Shown: in pieces, positions 1-12,414 of the stretch
How positions within the stretch are numbered: the stretch's first letter is position 1
Layout: each line of letters opens with the position of its first letter
Assembly: GCA_041641295.1 (NCBI GenBank)
Contig: JBEPYO010000001.1
Coordinates: forward strand, 608,001 to 672,000
Source of the DNA: Nitrososphaerota archaeon
Lineage (GTDB): Archaea > Thermoproteota > Nitrososphaeria_A > Caldarchaeales > Calditenuaceae
Direction of reading: 5' to 3'
Length of the DNA: 64,000 bases
Position numbers and translations under genes: made by a program
Notes under the pieces: generated by a model
The model's input: only the letters and a program-made list of their open reading frames with translations
The model's database searches: none
Told to the model about the DNA's origin: nothing

Positions 1-701
1 TCATAGAAGAATTCTCGAGATGCTTGGGACAGGTTCTTAATAGGTATCCGCCGAAGCCTGCACCAATAGGAAACGGGTTCTTCCGAGTAATTGTTCAATC
101 AAAGGCTCTCTACGACCTGCTTCGGAAGCCTATCGACATAGAGGTGATAAGACCATTCGTGGAGCATTGTGAAGAGTGTATGAAGAGCTTTTTGAGAGGA
201 TTCTTCGACAGCGAAGGCTCAGTAAGTAGTTATGGCTCTATTACATGCGTCAACACTGACGAAAGACTCATCAACTATGTTAAGATGCTTCTAAATAATC
301 TAGGCATCAAAACAACTGGGCCACATCTTCAGATGAAGAGAGGAACACCATTCTTCAGCAAGAAGAGGGGCAAGACCTACCGGACAAGAAAGGACGCCTA
401 TAGCCTCTACATCAGGACATGCAGCAGGCTAAAATTCTACGAGCTAGTAGGCTTCACAATCAAGAAAAGGCAGCAAAGATTAGAAGAATACCTGAGGAGA
501 CTAGGACGCCTAAACATGCCACCCAGCCAAACCTCCCCCCAAACACTATCCTCAACTCCCATCTCAACCTCCCACTCACAATATAGAATATCCGGAATGG
601 CCGCGGGTGGGACTCGAACCCACGATCGCCGGGTCCACAGCCCGGAGTGTTACCAGCTACACCACCGCGGCCACCGCTACGAGTTCGCAGATTTCAGGTA
701 A
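1..701 (+). CDS. LAGLIDADG-family endonuclease-like protein, 5' end outside the window
   Basis: Motif FLRGFFDSEGSV is present. The frame is open from base 3 (IEEFSRCLGQVLNR). It aligns by eye with 9266..10426. The C-terminal tail reads through tRNA-His on the opposite strand. Confidence 0.85.
   Translation, partial: IEEFSRCLGQVLNRYPPKPAPIGNGFFRVIVQSKALYDLLRKPIDIEVIRPFVEHCEECMKSFLRGFFDSEGSVSSYGSITCVNTDERLINYVKMLLNNLGIKTTGPHLQMKRGTPFFSKKRGKTYRTRKDAYSLYIRTCSRLKFYELVGFTIKKRQQRLEEYLRRLGRLNMPPSQTSPQTLSSTPISTSHSQYRISGMAAGGTRTHDRRVHSPECYQLHHRGHRYEFADFR
599..672 (-). tRNA. tRNA-His(GTG), intron-less, with genomically encoded G-1
   Basis: Cloverleaf: GCCGCGG acceptor stem, CCGGG-CTGTGGA-CCCGG anticodon arm, GTGGG-TTCGAGT-CCCAC T arm, discriminator C, and G at -1 (base 672). 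Confidence 0.95.
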
Positions 702-728
702 TATATTTGAGGGTGCCGGGTCTTAGAT

Positions 729-1049
729 TTAGGCGTATTCCCGCCAAGTGTAGCCGCACTTAGTGCATCTGAAGAACTGTGTCATGGGCTCGTCGGCGGA
801 TCTTGTCTGGACGCTCCACCAGTAGGCTTCCTGGTTTCCACACTGTGGGCACTGTACGTCGCCGGTCTTCGGCAGCACCTCCTTCTCAACATCATCGACT
901 ATCACTGTTTTCCGCGGCTTCCTCTGTTTGTGGGTGATGATGTCGCCTGTAGGCTTCTTCACATACCCACACTTTCTACAGACCAGTACTACGCTGTTTG
1001 ACTTCCGCTCAGTGATTAGGACTGCGTCGCAGCGTGGGCAGAACTCCAT
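729..1049 (-). CDS. tfs: transcription factor S (TFS, RpoM family)
   Basis: Two Zn ribbons and the QTRSADEP acidic hairpin motif. Confidence 0.92.
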   Translation of the reverse strand: MEFCPRCDAVLITERKSNSVVLVCRKCGYVKKPTGDIITHKQRKPRKTVIVDDVEKEVLPKTGDVQCPQCGNQEAYWWSVQTRSADEPMTQFFRCTKCGYTWREYA

Positions 1050-1130
1050 GCCTCATCCTCCACCTCTTACACCGAGAGAATAGCACCGCACGGTTATTTG
1101 ATTAACCTTATTCAAGGCCACCCGCCTCTC

Positions 1131-1409
1131 CTATGATAGGAGCTGCTGTATCGACTCTCTCAACCCCTTCGCCCTTGAGGAGAGTTCGCGTACGCCCTTC
1201 AGCAATACGTCGGCGGCTTTATGCCCCTCGCGAGTCCTAAGTATGAACCTTAACGTCCCGATTAGAGGGTGTGTTAGGGTGACGCCGGCGTATTCAACCT
1301 CCTCGAAAGAGTTGAGAACCTCCTGTAGCGAATCAAGGATGCTGAAGTCTATGTCTTTCAGCTCTAGCTCTAAGACGTTTTCACCCCTCTCGATTACCTT
1401 GACCTCCAG
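1131..1409 (-). CDS. rpoL: DNA-directed RNA polymerase subunit L (92 aa), probable CTG start; absent from the ORF track
   Basis: Manual translation gives (L/M)EVKVIERGENVLELELKDIDFSILDSLQEVLNSFEEVEYAGVTLTHPLIGTLRFILRT..., with the HPL motif. It sits in the conserved csl4-rpoL-tfs order. Confidence 0.85.
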   Translation of the reverse strand: MEVKVIERGENVLELELKDIDFSILDSLQEVLNSFEEVEYAGVTLTHPLIGTLRFILRTREGHKAADVLLKGVRELSSRAKGLRESIQQLLS

Positions 1410-2014
1410 AGCAGACCACCACCCTCCGGTGAAAGCAACCCTCCAAACATCTTAAGGAGCGTATTAACCTTCCCGTAGTAGGGGACTATCGGCCTGTTAG
1501 TATATTTCCTCTTACACCTTGTGCAGAAGAGGGCTCTGCCACTCAGGGTCAGGGGGGCGCCGCATATATCGCAGAAAGCCTGGAAGACGCCAAGACCACG
1601 ACCCCTAACCGTGAGGCTGTATATGCCAGAGTAGTCCTCCCGGATCCGCGCTACAATTATGTCTCCCACGGTGAAGAGTGGTGTTTCGCGGCGTTGTAGG
1701 GCTGCCGCTGTCCAGTGGGTCTTGACCGGGTGGCCGGCTGCAGCGAGTATGTCGCAGATAACTAGCTTGTCTTGGACCTCTCTAACTTGGCAGAGGACGA
1801 GGTCTCCCGTCCTGATCTTTACCGAGGGCTTTGCGGCCTTGACAGAGACCGAGTGTCTCTTCAAGTCGTACTCCGCAACCCCAGCGACGGTTGCCACCAC
1901 GGCCCCGTCTTTTAGGACCTCTGCACCCTCACCCGGCATGAACTCCTCCACTACGCAGAGCTTATCGCCTGGAAGGACTAGCCTGCCTGATGCTTGAAAC
2001 CTCACTCCGAGCAT
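1394..2014 (-). CDS. csl4: exosome RNA-binding protein Csl4
   Basis: LVLPGDKL...EEFMPGEG N-terminus, S1 domain, C-terminal CxxC...CxxC Zn ribbon. Confidence 0.85.
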   Translation of the reverse strand: MLGVRFQASGRLVLPGDKLCVVEEFMPGEGAEVLKDGAVVATVAGVAEYDLKRHSVSVKAAKPSVKIRTGDLVLCQVREVQDKLVICDILAAAGHPVKTHWTAAALQRRETPLFTVGDIIVARIREDYSGIYSLTVRGRGLGVFQAFCDICGAPLTLSGRALFCTRCKRKYTNRPIVPYYGKVNTLLKMFGGLLSPEGGGLLWRSR

Positions 2015-2066
2015 AGACTGCTACGGGGAGTAGATAAAGTAGATGTTCCATCATGAGGGGTGTGAG

Positions 2067-2666
2067 ATGGGTGGGCGGGGGTTGATTGTGGCCATCGAAG
2101 GAATTGACGGCGCTGGGAAGACAACCCAGGCTAAGCGGCTTGTGAGATTTCTAAGGTCGAAGGGCGTGGCGGCAGAGTATACCTCGGAGCCGACCAGCTC
2201 CGCCCTCGGAAAGATGATTAAGTCCTACTTGAGGCGGGGAGGAGTGGACCCCCACCTGCTGGCCCTCCTCTTCGCAGCAGACAGAGTCTACCATCTAAAC
2301 AAAACTGTCAACCCATTGCTGGAGAGGGGCCGCGTAGTGGTTTGTGACAGATACCTTTACTCGTCCTATGCTTATCAGGGCGTGATGACCGGCCATCCCC
2401 TTTGGGTCAGGGAGATTAACAGGATGGCCCCACCACCAGATATCGCTGTCCTGCTGGACATCAGCGTTGAAGAAGCCCTTAGGAGGAAGAAGAGGAGGAT
2501 AAGGTTCGAGGACCCGGCCTTCCTAGAGGAGGTTAGGAGGGAGTATCTTAGACTGTGCGAGGCTGGGTTGATGGTAAAGGTAGACGCCGGAGGTGGGGTA
2601 GACGCAGTCTTCGTCGAGCTGGTGCGGGTTGTTTCGCCGCGGCTTGGCCTGAGTCCTAGCGCATGA
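2067..2666 (+). CDS. tmk: thymidylate (dTMP) kinase
   Basis: IEGIDGAGKTT P-loop, LFAADR and CDRY motifs. Start placed at ATG 2067. Confidence 0.92.
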   Translation: MGGRGLIVAIEGIDGAGKTTQAKRLVRFLRSKGVAAEYTSEPTSSALGKMIKSYLRRGGVDPHLLALLFAADRVYHLNKTVNPLLERGRVVVCDRYLYSSYAYQGVMTGHPLWVREINRMAPPPDIAVLLDISVEEALRRKKRRIRFEDPAFLEEVRREYLRLCEAGLMVKVDAGGGVDAVFVELVRVVSPRLGLSPSA

Positions 2667-2683
2667 GGGATGCTCCGTGACTG

Positions 2684-3154
2684 TTATTCTTCACTGCTTC
2701 GCAGCATCTTCTTAATCTCCGAGGCCACCGATATGCATGCCTTCTCCACACTTTCAGAGAGGCCTGAGCCCTGCTCAAATCGCTCACCCTCTATGCCGTA
2801 GACAAGTATCCTAGCTGGGAGCATCCTGAGGGAGTCAGCCAAGCCGATAATCTCCGGCAAAGTCATGGTGTGTGTCGACCTCCACGCAGCCGTCTTTGAT
2901 AGTTTGTCCGTCGAGTCGAGCCTGTGGATGGTTCCTCCACCAGAGAATTTCTCCATGGCATCGACTATGACCAAGAGGTCTATGTCGCCTGTCAGGTGGT
3001 CTAGAAGCTCGGTGAGCGTCTGAAGCCTGATAACCTCTGCACCAGCCTCTCCCGAGAGCAGGTCGGCGACCCTATGCCCAGCCCCATCATCACCCCTAAA
3101 CGTGTTGCCGATACACGCCACCATTACGCGTCTTCTGCGGCTACTCTTCCTCAA
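2684..3154 (-). CDS. hydrogenase maturation endopeptidase (HycI/HybD family)
   Basis: [14 protein letters not shown] and STH motifs; directly downstream of the large subunit gene. Confidence 0.9.
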
Positions 3155-4436
3155 TCTCCAGCTTTAGGAAGTGTGTCGCACAGGAGATGCATGGGTCGTA
3201 GTTTCTTACCGCCTGCTCGAACCGCCAGACTGCCTGGCTACGTGGGAGCCTCACTATCTCGGGGGCTAGGGCCCGGAGGTCCTCCTCAATCCTCTTCTGG
3301 TTCTGGGCTGTGGGGGGCACTATCTTGGCTGAGAGTATCCGGCCCTCGCCATCCACGTCGTATCTGTGGTAGAGTATGCCTCTCGGAGCCTCAGTGCATC
3401 CGCAACCTCTCCCAGCTCTGACCTGCGGCTCAACCCTAGGACTCGACGGCTCAACATATTCGTCGATAATCCTGAGAGCCTCCTCAAAGGAGTAGTATGT
3501 CTCAGCAACTCGCGCGATTATGCTCTTGAACGGGTTCCTGCAAGGTGTCTTAAAGCCGATTCTCCTTAAGGCCCCTTTTGTGCGGTCGTGGAGCTTGTCA
3601 TAGTTAAGGTTGATTCTGGAGAGGGGGCCGACCATGTATGAGCCCCTGCCGACTATGTAGGAGTGTAGCGCATTGGAGTGTGGGACCTGCTCCTCCGCAA
3701 AATAGTCCTCGTACTGGTCAACATCAATGTCCAATCCCTTATTCGACACAATCCTTCCCTCGTTCATCGGATACTCTTCTGGGTGTCTGAGGGAGACGAA
3801 CTCGTAGTCCTGCTCAAAAGCAGGGAACTCTAGGTCCGCAACCCACTCCAGCAGGTCTTCAACAGTCGCCATGTTTTCTACTAGTCGCTCCCTCAGCTCC
3901 ATTAGCTCGCGCTTAGAAGGCACGCGGTAGAACCCACCTACGCATGCTGAGACAGGGTGAATCTCCCGGCCACCCAGCAGCGAGACTATATCATTTCCCA
4001 GCTTCTTCACCTTGAGGGCATTCTTCACTACTCTGGGGTGTTTCTTAGCCATCTTAATTGCGTCGTCGTATCCTAGGAAGTCGGGTGCGTGGAGGAGGAA
4101 GGCGTGGAGCATGTGGCTCTCTATCCACTCACCACAGTAGTAAAGCCTCCTCAGACTCCTCACCGACGGGGCTATGGTTACGCCGAAGAGCCTTTCAAAA
4201 GCATGCACCGAGCTCATCTGATAAGCCACAGGGCAAATCCCGCAGATCCTAGCAGTTATATCTGGGGCGTCATAGTACATCCGGCCCACTAGCAGTGCTT
4301 CGAAGAGCCTCGGAGGCTCGAATATCCTGAACTTGACGTCCACCACCTCGCGGCCTCTAAGCTTGATGTAGAGCGCGCCCTCGCCCTCAACCCTGGCTAG
4401 GTAGTCCACACGGTATTCCTTCTCCCTAGCAGTCAA
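3141..4436 (-). CDS. group 3b [NiFe]-hydrogenase large (alpha) subunit
   Basis: ARVEGEG, L1 motif RICGIC, L2 motif DPCISCATH followed by a short cleavable tail. Confidence 0.95.
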
Positions 4437-5203
4437 GCCTCAGCCTCCACCTCCCTAAAGCCAGGCGCCCAAGCGTTGAAGAGTCTGAAGGCCATGACGA
4501 CTTCCTCCCGCCTCCTACCCAGCTCTATGAAACGCTTCATTAGTGACTTAGAGTTAAGCGACTCTTTAGGCCCGTAGCAGCCATAGCATCCCCTCCCATA
4601 GGCTGGGCAGATGGCCCCACAGCCTGCATGAGTCACTGGCCCGAGACATGGAACGCCCCGAGCCACCATTACACATGCCGTGCCCCTCAGCTTACACTCG
4701 ACACAGACGCTCTGGTTGGGAATGCTGGGCGCCCTCCCCGAGAGGTACGCCGAAATCACCTCGAGTAGCTGGTACTTGTTTATTGGGCAGCCCCGGAGTT
4801 CGAAGTCAACCGGCACGTGGTCTGAGATGGGGGTAGACTTGTCCAGCGTCTCGATGTATTCTGGCTTCGGATAGACGTATTTCATAAACTCGGCTGAGCC
4901 CCTCCAGTTCCTGAGGGCCTGTATCCCGCCTGCTGTCGCGCACGCGCCTATGGTTATGAGTACTCTGCAGTTCTTCCTGATCTCTTTGATGAGCTCGGCG
5001 TCGTGGGGGGTTGTGATGCTTCCCTCTACTAGGCCGATGTCATATGGGCCCTTAACTACTGCACGGCTTGCCTCCAAGAAGTACGCGATCTCGAATGTCT
5101 CGCCAATTGTTAGCAACTCCTCCTCCAAGTCGAGGATGCTTAGCTGGCAGCCATCACATGACGCGAATTTATAGACTGCAATCTTTGGCCTTCTCTTCGC
5201 CAT
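4433..5203 (-). CDS. group 3b hydrogenase small (delta) subunit
   Basis: [14 protein letters not shown] and GCP FeS motifs. Start MAKRRPK at 5203 overlaps the upstream stop (TGATG). Confidence 0.92.
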
Positions 5204-6060
5204 CACACCTCCCTCCGCCCGAAGAAGTTTGAGACTTCTGAGAGGCTGAAGACAGGCCCATCCTTGCAGACGAAGAACGGGCCGAACTGGCAGTGCCCAC
5301 ATATACCGACGCCACACTTCATATTCCTCTCCATAGAGATGAAAATCCTCTCATCTGGAAGCCCCTGATTCTTCAACTCCTGCACGGTAAACCTCATCAT
5401 TATCTCAGGGCCGCAGACGTATGCATAGGTGTTGTTTGGCTCGAGCCTCAAGTATCTGAACAGTGTTGTGACTACGCCTATGTATCCGCGCCACTTCTCA
5501 TCCCCTCTATCTACAGTGACGAGTAGCTGGGTGTCCAGCCTGCTCCTCCAGACACGCAGTTCTTTCTTATAGAGCAGGTCGGCTGGCGTGCGGGCCCCAT
5601 AGAGAACATAGAGCTTCCCATACTTCTCCCTGTTTCTTATTATGTGTTGTATTGCCGGTCTTAGGGGTGCTAAACCTATTCCACCCCCAACAATAATTAC
5701 GTCCTGACCCTCAGCCTCTCTGAGCGGCCACCCCCTACCGAAGGGCCCCCTCAACCCCACGCTCGAACCTATCCGCGCCGTCGTCAAGGCCTTGGTCACA
5801 GGCCCCACCGCCCTCACGGTATGCTCCAGTGTCTGCCCGTTGGAGGAGGCTCCGCTTATGGAGATGGGGACCTCGCCCACGCCATAGGCGTAGAGCATGT
5901 TGAACTGGCCGGGGCTGAAAGCTATCTCGCCACGCCTGAGCGGACGAAGCCTAATGGTGTACGTGTCAGGCGTCTCTTTATTCCGTCCAACCAATTGGCA
6001 CCAATCAATCCTGAACGGCTCTAGAGCGGTGGCCGCTCCGAGACTCTGCTCAGTCATCAC
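5203..6060 (-). CDS. group 3b hydrogenase gamma subunit (FAD/NAD(P)-binding, 2Fe-2S)
   Basis: [15 protein letters not shown] and [11 protein letters not shown] motifs. Confidence 0.92.
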
Positions 6061-6542
6061 ACCGCACCAGTCCTCGGCTCACCGTAGATATCCGCGAGAC
6101 GCAGCCTAGCAGCCCTAAGCCTGTCAGCGACAACCATCACTATGCGCCGGTAGACCTCGTAGCCGAATTCGATGTCGCTCTCCATCATCCGCAACATTTT
6201 CTCACTGTCGATCGAGATCGCCATCGTGTTCTCAACGGCTACCGCGCCGGCGGTCTTCTTGAAGGGCTCTATGAGTGAGGACCAGCCCAGAACCTCCCCG
6301 CTGCCAATGGTCTCGAACCTGAACTCACCCCGCGGCGGAATATTGAAGTAAAGAGCTACAAGGCCATAGACTATCAGGTACAGTTTTTTATGCACTTCTC
6401 CCTCGCTGAATATCCGCTGCCCCGCTGTGAACCGAACAATGCTAGCGATTGATGCGAGCTCCTTGACCTTCTCCGCCCGCATGCCCTTGGTGAAGGGGTG
6501 GTCGCTCAGCAGTGTTAAGAGCTCGACCTGCTGGCTACTCAT
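6057..6542 (-). CDS. stand-alone cyclic-nucleotide-binding (CAP/CNBD) domain protein
   Basis: GQRIFSEG...LYLIVYGLV...[13 protein letters not shown] pattern; no C-terminal HTH is visible. Confidence 0.85.
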
Positions 6543-7675
6543 GTCGCACTCACCTCCAGCACCCTCTGCCTAATCTTCGCCGCCTCCTCCGTAATATCTA
6601 TCCCCACTGGGCACCAAGTGATGCACCTGCCACAGCCCACACAGCCCATGACGCCGAACTGGTCAATCCACGTCGCGAGCTTGTGTGTAAACCACTGACG
6701 ATACCTGCTCATCCTACTAGACCTGATGGGGCCTCCGTGGATATAGGAGAAGTCGGCATTGAAGCATGAGTCCCATCTCCTCCAACGCTCAGCAACATTG
6801 CCCGAAAGAGTTGTAACCTCCTCAACAGTCGTGCAGAAGCATGTGGGGCAGACAAGTGTACAGTTAGCGCATGCGAGACACCTCTCAGCAACCTCTGCGT
6901 AGACCGGGCTCTCGAGGTTTTTGTACAACAAGTCCTTCAGACCGTTCACGTCCAGACCCTTCCTAAACAATGTTCGAGCCCTCTCAATCCTCGCAGCGGC
7001 CTCTGAGACTTCCTCGTCAGTCGCCCTCCGCGCACCGATACGCTCTAGGAGGCTCTTGCCAGCACTCGAACCCGCCTTAGCTACGAAGTAGTGTACACCA
7101 TCGCCCACTACCTCAGTGAGGCCTATATCGTAGCCCGACCCCGCCTCAGGCCCCGTGCCGACGGATAGGCAGAAGCAGTTCTCACCCGGCTCGGTACAGT
7201 TGACCGCAACTATGAAGACCTCGCGCCTCATTGCCGAGTAGACTGGGTCCACGTATGGGCCGCCCAGCAACACCTTGTCTAGGACCGAGATGGCGGCGAG
7301 CTCACACCCCCTAACCCCTATGAAGGCCAGCTTCTTCCCCAACACGTTGTTGGGGGTGACTTCACCTTTTCTCGAAACTGTGAAGAGTTTGACGCGGGGT
7401 GGATATAGAAACCTCTTCCACGAGTGTGGGCCTACTACGAAGCCGAAGAACGCCTTATCACCTCTCTCCTCTAGCCTGTAGTATCCTGGCCCCTGCCTAT
7501 CCCTCAGCCCCACTGGTAGCTGAGAGGCTGACTCAATCTCATCGTACACTATGGCACCCTCCCTGACTACTGGCCCAATAACAGAGTATCCAAGCCCTCG
7601 AAGAGCTGTGATTAGCTCGCCGAGAAGCGGGGGGTCGAGAAGATAATGATCGCTTTGATCTCTAAGTTCCCCCAT
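6539..7675 (-). CDS. group 3b hydrogenase beta subunit (4Fe-4S dicluster)
   Basis: [16 protein letters not shown] and [12 protein letters not shown]. Start placed at ATG 7675, downstream of the TATA-like box at 7701-7710. Confidence 0.9.
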
Positions 7676-7700
7676 CACATGTTTTAGAGTATTGAAAATC

Positions 7701-7750
7701 ATATAAATATATCGTGCCTTCATGCTGAAGGTCTATGCTTTCATGCTGAA
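7701..7750 (-). promoter_or_regulatory. putative hydrogenase operon promoter: TATA-like box with two upstream TTCA-N3-TGAA palindromes
   Basis: The minus strand reads ATATTTATAT at 7710-7701. TTCATGCTGAA occurs at 7719-7729 and 7740-7750. Confidence 0.55.
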
Positions 7751-7788
7751 TATTATTGAGATATGTAGACAAGCATAAGGGTGTGGAA

Positions 7789-8568
7789 CTAGTCTACACT
7801 TAGGCCCGCATTCCTGAGAACGTGTTTGAGCGCATCAGCGAACCGCGTCGAAAGAAGCTCATCCCTCCCCAGCCTGCCGCTCCGCGAACTCAGCAACGGG
7901 TCAAAAGGAATCTCTCCTAGAAACGCAACGCCTTTAGCACGCGCCAGCTCCTTCGTAGGACTCTCAGGGTCGCTGGTGGACATGTTCTCTACGAGGCCGA
8001 TTATTTTTAGAGACGCCGACCTCAGAATATCTATGAGTCTTCCGGCCACGTTTACTGCCAAGTGCGTCGGCGTGGTAATCACGATTGCTCCGCCACTCCT
8101 CTTAACGTATTTCGAGATCGTGAGAAGTTCGTCCCCAGTCCCCGGAGGCATGTCTACTAACAGGTAGTCGAGCCTGCCGAAGGCTGTTAGGGCCAGCATC
8201 TCCTTCACGATCTCCTCCTTGGCCTGCCCTGTTAGGGGGAGGGGCCTACCCTTCGAGAAAAGGTCGATGGACATAACCTTCAACCCCTCCACCACCGGCG
8301 GGACCAGACCCTCTCCCGACTCGACAGGATTGTCCTCAACACCTAGTAGTAGGCATGAAGAGGGGCCATGCAGGTCGAGGTCGAGCAGCCCTGTCCTATT
8401 GGATGCCCGTGAGAGCATGAGGGCGGCGGTGGCGGCTATTAGGCTCTTCCCCACACCACCCTTCCCGCCCGTGACCAAGATTATTTGAGAGATTTTTCCT
8501 ATGTTCTCCTCGATGAGGGAGTCTCTGTAGTCGAGCCGGCCCCCACTATCCCTCGACGCATACGACAT
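7789..8568 (-). CDS. Mrp/MinD-family P-loop ATPase, probably ATPase-type HypB
   Basis: GGKGGVGKS, LDLDLHG, DMPPGTGDE and ENMS motifs; coupled to hypA as in Thermococcales. Confidence 0.8.
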   Translation of the reverse strand: MSYASRDSGGRLDYRDSLIEENIGKISQIILVTGGKGGVGKSLIAATAALMLSRASNRTGLLDLDLHGPSSCLLLGVEDNPVESGEGLVPPVVEGLKVMSIDLFSKGRPLPLTGQAKEEIVKEMLALTAFGRLDYLLVDMPPGTGDELLTISKYVKRSGGAIVITTPTHLAVNVAGRLIDILRSASLKIIGLVENMSTSDPESPTKELARAKGVAFLGEIPFDPLLSSRSGRLGRDELLSTRFADALKHVLRNAGLSVD

Positions 8569-8953
8569 CTCTCACACTCACACCCCGACCCGAGACAATC
8601 CTCAAGTCTAGGCTTCCACACCACTTGCAGGCCGCATATGACGCTATCAGATCTGGGAGAAAATGTATCATCTCCCTCTCCTCCTCGCTGAGACCAGAGA
8701 TGGCCTCGCCGAAAGTCATAGTGTGGCCGCATGAGCCGCAGCTAATCATAGCAGGCTCAATCTCGATGGAGAACTCTGCCCCCTTGACCGCGCTGGCCGC
8801 GATAAGCCTCTCCAAAGCCTCACGAAGCACACTTGTGTCGAGCATACTCAGCTCACCGACCAAGACCCTAAAGCTCCTGACACCACAGCCAGACTTTAAC
8901 GAAAAGTCTCTAACCGACTCGACAACACCCCTCGCGATCGCATACTCATGCAT
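8546..8953 (-). CDS. hypA: hydrogenase nickel incorporation protein HypA
   Basis: N-terminal MHE, GELS motif, and two CxxC separated by an insertion containing IHFLP. Confidence 0.93.
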   Translation of the reverse strand: MHEYAIARGVVESVRDFSLKSGCGVRSFRVLVGELSMLDTSVLREALERLIAASAVKGAEFSIEIEPAMISCGSCGHTMTFGEAISGLSEEEREMIHFLPDLIASYAACKWCGSLDLRIVSGRGVSVRDVVCVEG

Positions 8954-9265
8954 ATCTCTTAAACAACTACACTAACCAACCCATAACCCTTATCCCGGAT
9001 TTTCAATCCTAACAGTCCAAGGACATCATAGTTTGTTCTTGGACTATTTGTGAATGAGCGATCACTAAAGTATCCATATCCTGTGAATTTAGCTTCTATT
9101 GTGGCCTATGTGAATGCCTCTGGATTGACTGATCCTCCTCCTTGACTGATAGGCCTTTAGATTGGACGTGAGTGACTTATTGGAAATTTAACAATCTTAA
9201 ACCATAATATACTTTCAGCGAAGTCTCTTAAGAGTTATAAAGCCCCCATACTTGCTATTCTAGTC

Positions 9266-10426
9266 ATGTCTGGAGAGAGCTGCCCACGCGTAGCGGAGCC
9301 TGTAGCAGGGCAGGGAACAGGAGGACTAAATCCCGGTCTTCTCAACGAGCCCGAGGACCAAACAGGGAAAGGATTAGGAAGAGTCCGGCAGAGAATGACA
9401 CCGGAGGAAAAGAAGAAGCTCATGGATGTGCTGAAGAGGGAGGCTCTGAGAGGGCTAGGATACGTGAGAATATGGCGGATGTTAAGGAAGGATGGGGTAA
9501 ATGTATCGAGGCGGACCGTAGAATACTGGTATCGCAAGTTTTTTCCAGAGAGATTGGGGAGAAGGGGAAAATACCTTCCACGCGAATTGAGGATAACGCT
9601 GTACGAGGAAGTCCTGAGGCTGAGGAGGCAGGGATTAGGTTACAAGAAGATTAGGCGGAGGATTAAAGAATTATATGATATCACGCTTGCACCCGCGGTA
9701 ATTGTTGATTGGTGTAGAGGAATCCATACACCATATGGCGGAATACGAATTCCTACAGTAGACTACCTGAAGCCATCCCCAGAGCTAGCTTATGTCATAG
9801 GTGTTGTGTGCGGGGATGGATCAGCTGTTAAAACAAGGGGGAGAAGCGGTGAATATGTTATCGGATCTCAAGTTAAGGATCGAGAGTTTAGCGAGAGATT
9901 CGCAGAATGCCTCGGTCGAATACTGAATAGGAGCCCGCCAACGCCGATACTCGTTAGAGGTAAGTTTCAGGTTTGTGTAAGATCGAGAACTCTTTACCAA
10001 CTTCTCCGAAAACCAATCGACATAAACAGGATAAAGAATTTCACGGAGCATTGTGAAGACTGCATGAGAAGTTTCCTAAAAGGCTTCTTCGATAGCGAAG
10101 GATCAGTAAGTAAGGAGGGGGAAATTCGCTGTGACAACTCAGACAAACAACTCCTAAACTATGTCAAGACCCTCCTGAATCGTTTATGCATCGATGTAAC
10201 AGGGCCGCACTTAGGTGTAAAGAAAGATACGCCCATCTTTAATAAGGATATGCAGAGAATATACATGAGAAAGAAAGAAGTATATTATCTCAATATCAGG
10301 GCTCCATATAGGCTAAAGTATTACGAGCTTGTTGGATTCTCTATTCGAAAGAAACAACAACGAATGGAAAACTATTTCAGGAGAAGAGGACTACTGGGGG
10401 GTCGCCTACCAGACCACCCCCTATAG
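9266..10426 (+). CDS. free-standing tandem-HTH plus double-motif LAGLIDADG endonuclease-like protein
   Basis: Two GLGY...W HTH-like repeats and motifs LAYVIGVVCGDG and FLKGFFDSEG. No intein splice motifs are seen. An alternative start lies at ATG 9395. Confidence 0.88.
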   Translation: MSGESCPRVAEPVAGQGTGGLNPGLLNEPEDQTGKGLGRVRQRMTPEEKKKLMDVLKREALRGLGYVRIWRMLRKDGVNVSRRTVEYWYRKFFPERLGRRGKYLPRELRITLYEEVLRLRRQGLGYKKIRRRIKELYDITLAPAVIVDWCRGIHTPYGGIRIPTVDYLKPSPELAYVIGVVCGDGSAVKTRGRSGEYVIGSQVKDREFSERFAECLGRILNRSPPTPILVRGKFQVCVRSRTLYQLLRKPIDINRIKNFTEHCEDCMRSFLKGFFDSEGSVSKEGEIRCDNSDKQLLNYVKTLLNRLCIDVTGPHLGVKKDTPIFNKDMQRIYMRKKEVYYLNIRAPYRLKYYELVGFSIRKKQQRMENYFRRRGLLGGRLPDHPL

Positions 10427-10469
10427 TCTCTTTTCACCCCAATCTTGCTGGTGTCTCATTATATAAATG

Positions 10470-10561
10470 CGGGCCCGGTGGGACTCGAACCCACGGTTTC
10501 CGCGCCTTTAACGCTCTGCGGCTTAGGAGGCCGCCGCCTTATCCTTCTAGGCCACGGGCCC
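10470..10561 (-). tRNA. tRNA-Arg(CCT) with an 18-nt intron at non-canonical position 45/46 (intron 10498..10515)
   Basis: GGGCCCG acceptor stem and GCGGC-CTCCTAA-GCCGC anticodon arm. BHB-like motif CCGC-AGA-GC...GC-GCGG-AAA; removing the intron restores a 5-nt variable loop AGACC. Confidence 0.92.
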
Positions 10562-10596
10562 ATTAACACGCTGTTTGACGAATTTCAAAAACCTTG

Positions 10597-12414
10597 CTAT
10601 GGGACTGTTATGGATTTGGCGAGGTTTCGGGGCTTGTCCGGGTCGTGTCCTTTGACGAGGGCTGTGTAGTATGCGAGGAGCTGGAAGGGGATGGTGTAGG
10701 TTGTGGGTGAGAGGAGAGGATGGATCTTCGGCATCTCTATGTAGTAGTCGGCCAGCTGTTTCAGCTCTTGGTCTGAGGCGTCTCCCACGACGACTGTGTA
10801 GGCGCCTCTGGCCTTCATCTCCATTATGCTGCCTATGTTTAGTTTCCGGTACTCGTCTGGCGGCGCCACGAATATGACTGGGACACCGCTCTCTACCACG
10901 CTTATGGGGCCGTGCTTACTCTCGCCTGCCGGGTAGGTTATGCAGGGGATGTAGGAGAGCTCCATGAGTTTGAGCCGGCCCTCTAGGGCCGTGCTGTAGG
11001 ATACTCCGCGGCCGAGGATGAATACTACCCTGCTCTCAGCAATCCTCTCCGCCAGACGCCTTACAGGCTCATGAACCCTCGTCAAAGTCTCGGAAACAGC
11101 TTGTGGAACCCTCTCCAGCCAAGAGTTGAACTCGTCAATCTCGTACTGGGCTATCTTCCCCCTAAGCCTTGCGAGGCGGAGGGCAATCTTGGCCAGCACT
11201 AATACTTGCGATGTGAAGGTCTTGGTTGCCGCCACCCCTATCTCAGGCCCGGCGTTCTGGAGGACATAGGCTCTCGAGACCCTCGTCAAAGTTGAGCCGA
11301 CCGTATTGGTGATTCCGAGTATCGTGCAGGCCCTCATTCGAGCATACTCTAGCGCACTGAGCACGTCGGCGGTCTCGCCGGACTGGCTTACAGCCAAGAT
11401 GACAGTGTCGACACCTATGGAGGCTCCATAATTGGGTATGAACTCGGAGGCTATTACGGGAAAGGTGGGGAGCCGGGCAACCTGTGAGAAGAGGTATGAG
11501 CCAGCAACACATGCGTTATACGAGGTCCCCGCACCGAGGAGAAATACTGTGCGCCCCCTGTCGAGGAGCTCCGCTAGAAGGTCTACATACTCGATCTGGA
11601 GTCTGAGGGAGTTCCTAAGAGTCTCAGGCTGTTCAAATATCTCTTTGAGCATGAAGTGTGGGTATCCCTGCTTCTCAGCCATCTCGACTGTTAGGTCCAC
11701 TATCTTGACCGGCCTCTCAACAGCCTCACCCGTATCTATCCGTAGGATTCTGTAGCCGCTGCTAGTCAAGACCACCATGTCTCCGTCATGCAGGAAGACC
11801 ATCTCCTTGGTCATGTCTAGGAGGGCGGTGATGTCCGAGGCCACCATGTTAAAGCCCCTCCCAACCCCTATGATGAGCGGAGCCTCCCTCCTAGCTGCAA
11901 GGATTTTCTCCGGGCTCAAAGAGGAGACGAGAGCGACTGCATAGGACCCCTCAAGCCTCTGGAGAGCCTTCCTAAAAGCCTGCTCCAGCTCCTCACCCCT
12001 CCTCAAATACTCCTCGACCAGATGAGCTATGACCTCGCTGTCCGTCCTAGATGCTAGGGCGTGGTCGAGGTCTAGGAGCTCCTTCTTCAAGGCTAGGTAG
12101 TTTTCGATCACTCCGTTGTGAACTATGGCTATCCTTCCGCTGCAGTCGGTGTGGGGGTGTGCGTTCAGTGCCGTTGGGGCGCCGTGGGTGGCCCATCTCG
12201 TGTGGGCTATCCCAAGGGTGCCGGGCATGGAATCCAGCTTCAGCCTCGCATTGATCTCATTAACCCTGCCCGCATCCTTCCTAACCACAACCTCACCCGC
12301 GTAGACTGTCGCCACTCCGGCCGAGTCGTACCCACGGTATTCAAGCCTCTTCAAAGCCCTCAACAATATAGGCGCTGCGCTCTCCGCGCCTGCGTAGCCC
12401 ACAATGCCGCACAT
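10597..12414 (-). CDS. glmS: glutamine-fructose-6-phosphate transaminase
   Basis: MCGIVG N-terminus, HTRWATHG, SQSGET, PRNLAKS. Confidence 0.97.
   Translation of the reverse strand: MCGIVGYAGAESAAPILLRALKRLEYRGYDSAGVATVYAGEVVVRKDAGRVNEINARLKLDSMPGTLGIAHTRWATHGAPTALNAHPHTDCSGRIAIVHNGVIENYLALKKELLDLDHALASRTDSEVIAHLVEEYLRRGEELEQAFRKALQRLEGSYAVALVSSLSPEKILAARREAPLIIGVGRGFNMVASDITALLDMTKEMVFLHDGDMVVLTSSGYRILRIDTGEAVERPVKIVDLTVEMAEKQGYPHFMLKEIFEQPETLRNSLRLQIEYVDLLAELLDRGRTVFLLGAGTSYNACVAGSYLFSQVARLPTFPVIASEFIPNYGASIGVDTVILAVSQSGETADVLSALEYARMRACTILGITNTVGSTLTRVSRAYVLQNAGPEIGVAATKTFTSQVLVLAKIALRLARLRGKIAQYEIDEFNSWLERVPQAVSETLTRVHEPVRRLAERIAESRVVFILGRGVSYSTALEGRLKLMELSYIPCITYPAGESKHGPISVVESGVPVIFVAPPDEYRKLNIGSIMEMKARGAYTVVVGDASDQELKQLADYYIEMPKIHPLLSPTTYTIPFQLLAYYTALVKGHDPDKPRNLAKSITVP

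Follow-up and report, generated by a model that had tools for sequence, protein, structure and literature searches.

Homing endonucleases are thought to persist inside introns or inteins of conserved genes, and I-DmoI and its relatives, each with a single target site, lie inside ribosomal RNA (rRNA) introns or inteins. The closest lifestyle outside such hosts is the intronless homing of phage T4 SegB and the other Seg and Mob enzymes. SegB is encoded by a free-standing endonuclease gene among or next to transfer RNA (tRNA) genes, and this gene and the DNA flanking it are reported to be preferentially inherited (PMC2330249). Free-standing mobile homing endonuclease genes are otherwise noted only as a class in the available text of PMC6125680. 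Elements with a tyrosine integrase (SSV-type, pNOB8-type and thaumarchaeal integrated mobile genetic elements) leave the tRNA functional after insertion (PMC6563490). Here we describe a family of free-standing LAGLIDADG genes recognised in a stretch of 64,000 nucleotides (nt) from an archaeal chromosome (contig JBEPYO010000001.1, positions 608,001 to 672,000; hereafter the window), in which two members converge on the 3′ ends of tRNA genes. We regard the family as a selfish element targeting tRNA 3′ ends and estimate the probability of this reading at roughly 0.9.

The family shares its fold and motif pair, both acidic residues and archaeal thermophilic hosts with I-DmoI, I-Tsp061I and the nuclease domain of PI-PfuI. 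In contrast to I-DmoI, its genes are free-standing, encode one or two additional N-terminal helix-turn-helix (HTH) bundles, lie outside the target gene and are found at many tRNAs. SegB is a GIY-YIG enzyme of a phage genome acting at one locus in co-infection, whereas the present enzymes are of the LAGLIDADG type, reside in archaeal chromosomes, dock with base precision at tRNA 3′ ends and occur in multiple copies across tRNAs; a similar co-transfer of flanking tRNA sequence is suggested by the tRNA-Pro locus described below. With integrase elements the family shares the landing zone in the tRNA 3′ part, but it carries no integrase, shows no attachment-site (att) duplication at three of the four loci with empty sites, and comprises one gene on 1-1.5 kb. 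Neither 'LAGLIDADG' nor 'homing' occurs in the main text of a survey of thaumarchaeal integrated elements that also covers 'Ca. Caldiarchaeum subterraneum' (PMC6563490). No description of LAGLIDADG genes that stand alone and dock at the 3′ ends of archaeal tRNAs was found in the literature searched, which included the available parts of PMC6125680, PMC10547907 and PMC6563490 and left most subscription journals outside. A free-standing LAGLIDADG homing element with generic tRNA-3′-end docking and transposon-like multiplication appears to be new.

Anatomy and borders of the elements

The window corresponds to G000:C1:608001-672000 of an archaeal genome of 1.56 Mb and 52.5% GC, here termed G000, whose relatives in public databases are metagenome-assembled genomes (MAGs) of Caldarchaeales (Aigarchaeota) of hot-spring origin. 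The element comprises about 1.4-1.5 kb (about 0.95 kb in a short form) and consists of a leader with its own predicted promoter and one gene. The two copies and the adjoining tRNA genes are arranged as follows, in window positions:

1..597, plus strand: right-hand 597 bp of the tRNA-His element, with the C-terminal LAGLIDADG half and a C-rich, Pro-rich tail
598..672, minus strand: tRNA-His(gtg), called by ARAGORN and Rfam (66.8 bits); its 3′ end is the docking point
8996..9265, plus strand: left end and AT-rich leader (about 265-270 bp) of the tRNA-Arg element, from alignment with the empty alleles of the related genomes G006 (L045) and G004 (L044)
9266..10426, plus strand: LAGLIDADG gene of 386 amino acids (aa), from Pfam, alignment, an AlphaFold2 (AF2) model and the match to I-DmoI
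10427..10468, plus strand: right terminus of the tRNA-Arg element, a C-rich and then AT-rich tail (...CATTATATAAATGC) which stops at the first base past the tRNA
10469..10561, minus strand: tRNA-Arg(cct), 93 nt, with extra bases in the variable region, called by ARAGORN and Rfam (59.5 bits); its 3′ end is the docking point

The open reading frames (ORFs) 3..701 and 9266..10426 are clear paralogues, as an earlier note on this DNA had stated (58% identity over 170 aa, E 7e-67), and Pfam LAGLIDADG_3 matches both (1.5e-13 and 2.6e-13, respectively). Their A-richness, also remarked there, is reflected in a GC content of 0.40-0.50 across both genes versus about 0.55-0.59 in the surroundings and in a positive AT skew over both. 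ORF 3..701 represents the C-terminal portion of a paralogue that is truncated at the edge of the window, with its full frame at G000:C1:607385-608701, and continues antisense across tRNA-His before reaching a stop. As both tRNAs lie on the minus strand at the ends of the two plus-strand ORFs, both genes converge on a tRNA 3′ end; ARAGORN and Rfam confirmed this proposed arrangement. The tRNA-His(gtg) is the sole His tRNA called in G000, and no second tRNA with a cct anticodon was called there. A TATA-like TTATAAA at 9235-9241, located 25-31 nt upstream of the ATG at 9266, is presumably an archaeal promoter box. On the tRNA-Arg strand, the element end provides a T-rich trailer (ATTTATATAA), and a terminator-like site at 10494-10469 together with the tail is found at this end of the element.

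An Rfam scan of window positions 1-11000 returned the two tRNAs only and no intron or other RNA family, and the ORF list of the window contains no host frame flanking the LAGLIDADG gene, so that the lack of an intron or intein context reported before was upheld. Since the gene runs antisense to the tRNA, it is not located in a tRNA intron. The 'C-rich spacer' formerly placed between gene and tRNA had to be reinterpreted: the right-end tail is conserved between copies at different tRNAs and is thus part of the element, its 3′ tail, which largely represents a Pro-rich ORF C-terminus.

Orthologous empty loci in related genomes set the insertion borders at tRNA-His, tRNA-Arg(cct) and tRNA-Arg(tct), as the earlier note had envisaged. 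The stand-alone gene is present or absent at the same locus between related genomes, and empty sites were identified at four loci. At tRNA-His, the left flank is joined straight to the tRNA 3′ end in G005 (L048, 0 bp) and lies 32 bp from it in G006 (L047); the insertion in G000 measures 1377 bp (C1:607222-608598) and begins 779 bp before the window. The empty sites of tRNA-Arg(cct) contain about 1 bp (G006) and 9 bp (G004) in place of an insertion of about 1473 bp (window 8996-10468), and at tRNA-Arg(tct) about 34 bp in G004 compare with about 1453 bp in G000. For tRNA-Pro, empty alleles were found in G007 and G004. At the His and both Arg loci the inserted DNA consists only of a leader of about 265 bp, the gene and the tail, with a single ORF of the LAGLIDADG type; none of these three insertions contains a gene for a tyrosine or serine integrase. 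The right end of the element directly adjoins the first base after the tRNA, and the junction overlaps with the target by 3-4 nt (TGGC at His, CGG at Arg).

A search for att repeats with exact words from the tRNA and 30 nt on either side against 4 kb on the element side returned only chance 10-11-mers, i.e. no tRNA-derived repeat of at least 12 nt within 4 kb at five loci. Terminal inverted or flanking direct repeats of at least 11 nt were absent from three elements. Alignment of the leaders of the five full-length G000 copies revealed little conservation apart from that between the Pro and Ile copies, and no common left end was therefore defined.

In total, six homologous places were found in G000, all on the plus strand: five full-length copies and one 5′-truncated, frameshifted fragment. 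All five full-length copies stop 45-85 nt short of the 3′ end of a convergent minus-strand tRNA. These tRNAs, out of 48 called by ARAGORN, are His-gtg, Arg-cct, Pro-cgg, Ile-gat and Arg-tct, each the sole gene for its anticodon in these calls. The chance of docking is about 0.0015 per gene and about 9e-15 for five of five if the copies are independent, which bears out, for this genome, the suspected departure of distance and orientation from chance. Four of the five copies are intact, and the Arg-tct copy has an internal TAG. Pairwise identity among them is 55-58%, and protein differences of 42-45% indicate that the copies are old, without recent movement here. The fragment (C1:859681-860528) has no tRNA beside it, only a degenerate tRNA-end-like stretch.

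A clustered regularly interspaced short palindromic repeats (CRISPR) array outside the window (G000:C1:854898-859365; 68 repeats, 25-nt repeat, spacing 64-68; its end corresponds to L006:1-945) stops about 320 bp before this fragment. None of its 67 spacers matched an element when searched against all fetched loci; the single spacer match (20 nt, E 0.004) falls elsewhere in L130.

The AF2 model of the 386-aa protein, built on a 17-row alignment, reached a mean predicted local distance difference test (pLDDT) score of 79.5. Residues 1-41 are disordered, and the gene caller starts at M44, which yields a protein of 343 aa (P0001). Two three-helix HTH-type bundles are predicted at residues 46-92 and 106-151, and weak N-terminal Pfam matches to HTH_21 and HTH_32 accompany them, consistent with the two HTH-like repeats seen earlier in the complete copy. 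The precomputed N-terminal HTH families of homologues are PF13565, PF13276, PF13936 and PF13384. A monomeric double-LAGLIDADG domain is modelled at residues 172-373 with twice the order alpha-beta-beta-alpha-beta-beta-alpha and pLDDT values of 89-98. Its two motifs, ...IGVVCGDG... and ...GFFDSEGS..., are located at residues about 176-185 and 270-279, and G183, D184, G185 as well as D276, E278 and G279 are invariant in 17/17 aligned members. The acidic residues at the motif ends are the catalytic ones in I-DmoI-type enzymes. The invariance of D184 and E278 thus means that the residues carrying catalysis in these enzymes are kept, and, judged by its sequence, the nuclease with both catalytic acidic residues is apparently intact.

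Foldseek returned I-DmoI as the top match (E 3.8e-10, TM score of 0.76 on the target), followed by PI-PfuI and the TliVMA intein nuclease, and a profile search of PDB sequences yielded I-DmoI at 6.9e-10. According to the model, the gene product is a predicted DNA-binding head of tandem HTH bundles fused to a monomeric I-DmoI-like LAGLIDADG endonuclease. The short form of the element, common in relatives, lacks the first HTH bundle yet is docked alike. Database names of homologues are restricted to 'LAGLIDADG family homing endonuclease' or 'intein-encoded DNA endonuclease-like protein', and NCBIfam holds no model for the family, with weak matches only to intein-bearing proteins.

The reading frame of the Pro-rich protein end often closes only at or within the tRNA. 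In other genomes, the C-termini of predicted proteins spell the antisense T-arm ('...GGTRTH...', '...GGIRTLD...'), which is an independent sign of docking. Gene-calling programs carry such ORFs on in antisense across the tRNA and thereby create false C-terminal tails in database proteins. Examples of such tails are window 3-701 and proteins P0005, P0012, P0016, P0028 and P0084.

The surroundings of both loci are occupied by ordinary host genes. A TFS/RPB9-type zinc-ribbon protein gene (window 729-1049, minus strand) lies upstream of tRNA-His, and a HypA gene (8546-8953, minus strand) on the element side of the Arg locus ends a run of hydrogenase-type genes (2684-8953). Three hot-spring DNA data sets contain the stretch, each a possible source, and no RNA data set was listed with it. 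Contigs matched to 8300-11000 end within the gene at 9590-9630, where the paralogues share words; none of them spans the element, and they are unable to reveal rare empty alleles.

Distribution and recent spread of the family

Matches to the family were found in 28 of 41 related genomes, including 23 of the 31 of high quality, and the other eight high-quality relatives had none. The number per genome ranged from 0 to 47, many matches containing internal stops and many lying at contig ends. Some genomes show a recent multiplication of the family and others its decay, and different tRNAs are occupied in different genomes. A wider scan with one genome per species resulted in 79 loci, which span Caldarchaeales to Nitrososphaerales, Nitrosopumilales and Bathyarchaeota. 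Among viral contigs, one weak relative (28% identity, E 3e-8) was identified within 88 pattern matches, which provides no evidence for a viral vehicle.

ARAGORN detected a convergent tRNA within 200 nt of 40/77 gene ends and at 201-400 nt of a further 3/77; a co-directional tRNA was called at 1/77, no tRNA despite 400 nt of room at 26/77, and too little sequence was available at 7/77. By eye, several of the 26 tRNA-less ends show tRNA ends missed by ARAGORN or tRNA 3′ fragments of 13-40 nt. A matrix of the T-arm and acceptor strand was trained on G000 tRNAs and applied with a cut-off of 18 bits to windows of at least 200 nt. It placed a tRNA 3′ motif in convergent orientation in 50/73 windows and in opposite orientation in 2/73, compared with 2/59 control windows located 1.2-1.5 kb upstream. 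The enrichment next to tRNA genes expected from the two loci of the window thus extends to the relatives. The specificity of the matrix is illustrated by G000, where 46 of 48 genome-wide matches (at least 16 bits) fall inside tRNAs.

The recent spread is best documented in one MAG (loci L073-L129, accession prefix JAVVGN). It contains at least 12 copies with 75-92% DNA identity at 11 different tRNAs: Thr-ggt, Gly-tcc, Ser-gct, Pro-cgg, Asn-gtt, Met-cat, Ser-gga, Ser-aga, Ile-gat, Glu-ttc and Gly-ccc. This high identity at 11 tRNAs indicates that the spread was recent and not bound to one tRNA. On alignment, the right ends reveal a common tail (...CCCCTCCCCCAACCATTTCCC...CTCAAAATAATAACTAA), which is followed by 2-3 nt and then the tRNA. 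On the left, the sequence common to all copies begins about 60 nt upstream of the conserved core, and subgroups share an additional 70-320 nt ending at different points. One subfamily carries a 13-nt tRNA-end piece at its left border. In L106, L109 and the second copy in L110, only tRNA fragments follow the element.

A maximum-likelihood tree was calculated from 44 intact cores, restricted to copies with one stop-free match that starts at query position 115 or below and reaches 355 or above, and to four G000 copies; the TAG-bearing Arg-tct copy was omitted. The copies cluster by genome or taxon and not by tRNA identity, which points to a specificity for tRNA 3′ ends in general.

Proposed mechanism and competing explanations

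Starting from the directly observed anatomy, the insertion polymorphism with base-precise borders, the many tRNA targets and the intact nuclease motifs, we consider it fairly probable that the family is a free-standing homing endonuclease which would cut the tRNA 3′ boundary and copy itself by break repair, a mechanism inferred from these observations. The enzyme would recognise the conserved 3′ part of the tRNA gene, namely the acceptor and T-arm DNA that all tRNAs share, and break an unoccupied gene at or near its 3′ boundary. The tRNA-bearing broken end would then invade an occupied tRNA locus, the tRNA serving as homology arm, and the element would be copied outwards from the tRNA side. 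At the same locus of another genome, the far end would be rejoined by homology, corresponding to classical intronless homing; at a different tRNA, it would be rejoined through a few bases of microhomology. Such tRNA-primed copying with microhomology closure would result in a constant tRNA-side end and a ragged far end dragging donor flank, and likewise in the absence of target duplication and in occasional stranded tRNA 3′ fragments. The position just outside the mature tRNA would make splicing unnecessary, and the T-rich end of the element would take over as tRNA trailer. Possible signs of co-conversion are the foreign tRNA 3′ part at the Pro locus and the extra left-flank DNA of subfamilies, for which other readings are possible.

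At tRNA-Pro(cgg) of G000, the insertion falls inside the gene, unlike the docking outside it at other loci. Read along the plus strand, the locus is composed of the following parts:

C1:885840-885871: after the left flank, the displaced ancestral 32-nt tRNA-Pro 3′ fragment, with a CCGGC-type T-stem and identical in sequence to the G003 and G002 allele
between the two Pro 3′ parts: LAGLIDADG-bearing DNA of about 2.1 kb
C1:887985-888017: a second, unlike 33-nt tRNA-Pro 3′ part, which now completes the gene, with a CCCAC-type T-stem and identical in sequence to the G007 and G004 allele
C1:888018-888050: a 33-nt perfect hairpin, called an intron by ARAGORN, followed by the ancestral tRNA 5′ part

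The two 3′ parts differ at the T-stem, and the uninterrupted tRNA-Pro genes of G007 and G004 contain neither element nor hairpin. In the minimum free energy fold of the tRNA-Pro precursor, the 33-nt hairpin was formed and the cloverleaf was not. Only two orphan tRNA-end motifs were detected by the matrix in the whole of G000, and the displaced fragment is the first of them. The second, at G000:C1:1518368-1518391 (plus strand, 22 bits), lies outside the called tRNAs, and no family member was seen adjoining it. These findings point to breaks that may lie inside the tRNA and to donor tRNA sequence being carried along by the element.

A bolder extension, which we put forward tentatively and hold to be rather unlikely, starts from an enzyme that breaks tRNA genes themselves. 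Repair from an occupied donor would import a foreign tRNA 3′ part, and non-homologous joining of the far end would strand fragments and leave extra sequence at the joint for splicing, so that the family would act as a generator of non-canonical introns and of chimeric, possibly split tRNA genes. The tRNA-Pro(cgg) locus would then be a caught example, with two allele types, a 33-nt hairpin at the joint and the old 3′ part 2.1 kb away.

Several observations weigh against the homing mechanism proposed above. No tRNA 3′ motif lies close to about 23 of 73 gene ends, and L056 shares its element end with L106 yet has no tRNA; docking is either not obligatory or was lost by rearrangement. In L059 (= L010) and L093 the tRNA is co-directional, and the gene 3′ end faces the tRNA 5′ end. 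The genomes compared are kin, and counts across them are not independent. As the G000 copies are only 55-58% identical, this genome gives no sign of recent movement, and the precise borders at the His and Arg loci could each stem from one old event. The ragged left ends could be subfamily-specific leaders, and the Pro locus could have arisen by recombination of the integrase type, its crossover lying in the shared inner 8 nt.

Among the alternatives, the one that survives best, although we judge it unlikely, is that the protein itself is a recombinase, whose HTH head binds the element and tRNA ends while the LAGLIDADG domain makes the breaks, i.e. a site-specific transposon independent of repair from a donor copy. 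The N-terminal HTH families (HTH_21, HTH_32; PF13565, PF13276, PF13936, PF13384) are typical of transposases, the burst at 11 tRNAs within one genome looks like transposition, and the right end is constant. The left ends, however, are ragged, terminal inverted repeats and target duplications are absent, and the short form without the first HTH bundle is still docked. To our knowledge, no LAGLIDADG enzyme joins DNA.

Less probable still is that the elements are passengers or remnants of integrase-type elements, with the tyrosine integrase elsewhere or lost and the LAGLIDADG gene as cargo. The displaced 32-nt Pro fragment at the far border and the 13-nt fragment in one subfamily would fit such an origin. 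Archaeal integrated elements commonly use the tRNA gene 3′ part, and the att sites of Thaumarchaeota are short (median length 17 bp; PMC6563490). Yet the empty sites at His, Arg(cct) and Arg(tct) leave space for one gene and show an overlap of 3-4 nt instead of an att repeat. The two Pro fragments are unlike at the T-stem, not as in an att duplication, and across 79 loci the conserved partner of the tRNA is always the LAGLIDADG gene, in one orientation.

The earlier idea of a minimal selfish element beside tRNA genes without an integrase is supported by the empty sites, the one-gene insertions, the variable copy number and the recent burst.

The earlier note had offered as its other option a domesticated WhiA-like binder of tRNA loci, which might serve the neighbouring tRNA gene, e.g. 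by regulating or terminating its transcription. WhiA joins a LAGLIDADG scaffold to an HTH domain, as does the present family, and weak matches to it were obtained (Pfam E 0.06, Foldseek E 1.9e-5). In WhiA the catalytic residues have been lost, the HTH lies C-terminally and only one, conserved gene is present, whereas in the present family the catalytic residues are invariant (17/17), the HTH bundles are N-terminal and copies come and go. The position and orientation to tRNAs, fixed over a phylum-level range, and the four intact copies among the five old ones of G000 speak for a host function. Against it, presence varies at orthologous loci, which are thus not vertically conserved, the occupied tRNAs differ between genomes, 8 of 31 high-quality relatives have no match and others have dozens with many stops, and the best fold match is I-DmoI. 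We therefore regard domestication as very improbable.

Untargeted insertion, with survivors being the copies in the harmless gap after a tRNA of compact genomes, would suit the gene-dense genomes and the approximately 30% of copies not at a tRNA, but it is scarcely credible in view of independent insertions 0-3 nt from the tRNA and always in one orientation, 50 convergent versus 2 co-directional cases, and no comparable use of other intergenic gaps.

Other tenants of tRNA genes and implications

Further insertions were observed at the same tRNA genes in congeners. In G006, the 3′ flank of tRNA-Arg(cct) is empty and the gene itself is interrupted by about 1.5 kb (L037:2271-3770, L045:1-1500; G006:C19 about 3929-5463). 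The interruption lies at tRNA position about 26-31 with an overlap of 5-6 nt and contains a 260-aa ORF without a Pfam match; it may be a giant intron or another mobile element. The same genome carries a tandem duplicate of tRNA-Val(cac) directly after a docked element (L009:2605-2927, = L057:4150-4472).

In G003, inserts of 514 bp (L038:987-1500, Arg cct) and 341 bp (L136:1129-1469, Pro cgg) occupy the exact tRNA 3′ docking points, and L072:1528-1729 was noted alongside them. The two G003 inserts are 67% alike over the tRNA-proximal 180 bp, with a C-rich and then AT-rich tail resembling that of the LAGLIDADG elements but without similarity to the gene, and may represent a second, non-autonomous tenant of the docking site. 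The Arg site of G007 harbours an unrelated insert of 538 bp. Since no translated similarity to the LAGLIDADG family was detected in the inserts that G003 and G007 carry at the Arg(cct) site, we do not classify them as remnants of it.

By parking one base outside the mature tRNA, the selfish element described here appears to gain a target that is conserved and harmless to the host. As every tRNA gene is usable as a landing pad, the family behaves in part as a homing element and in part as a transposon. Its copies fragment MAG assemblies at tRNA loci, and spurious tails of the 'GGTRTH' type enter protein databases. If the enzyme is active, the family would be a group of thermostable nucleases with a readable and conserved class of natural targets, a new entry among archaeal mobile elements and a concrete source of rearranged archaeal tRNA genes.

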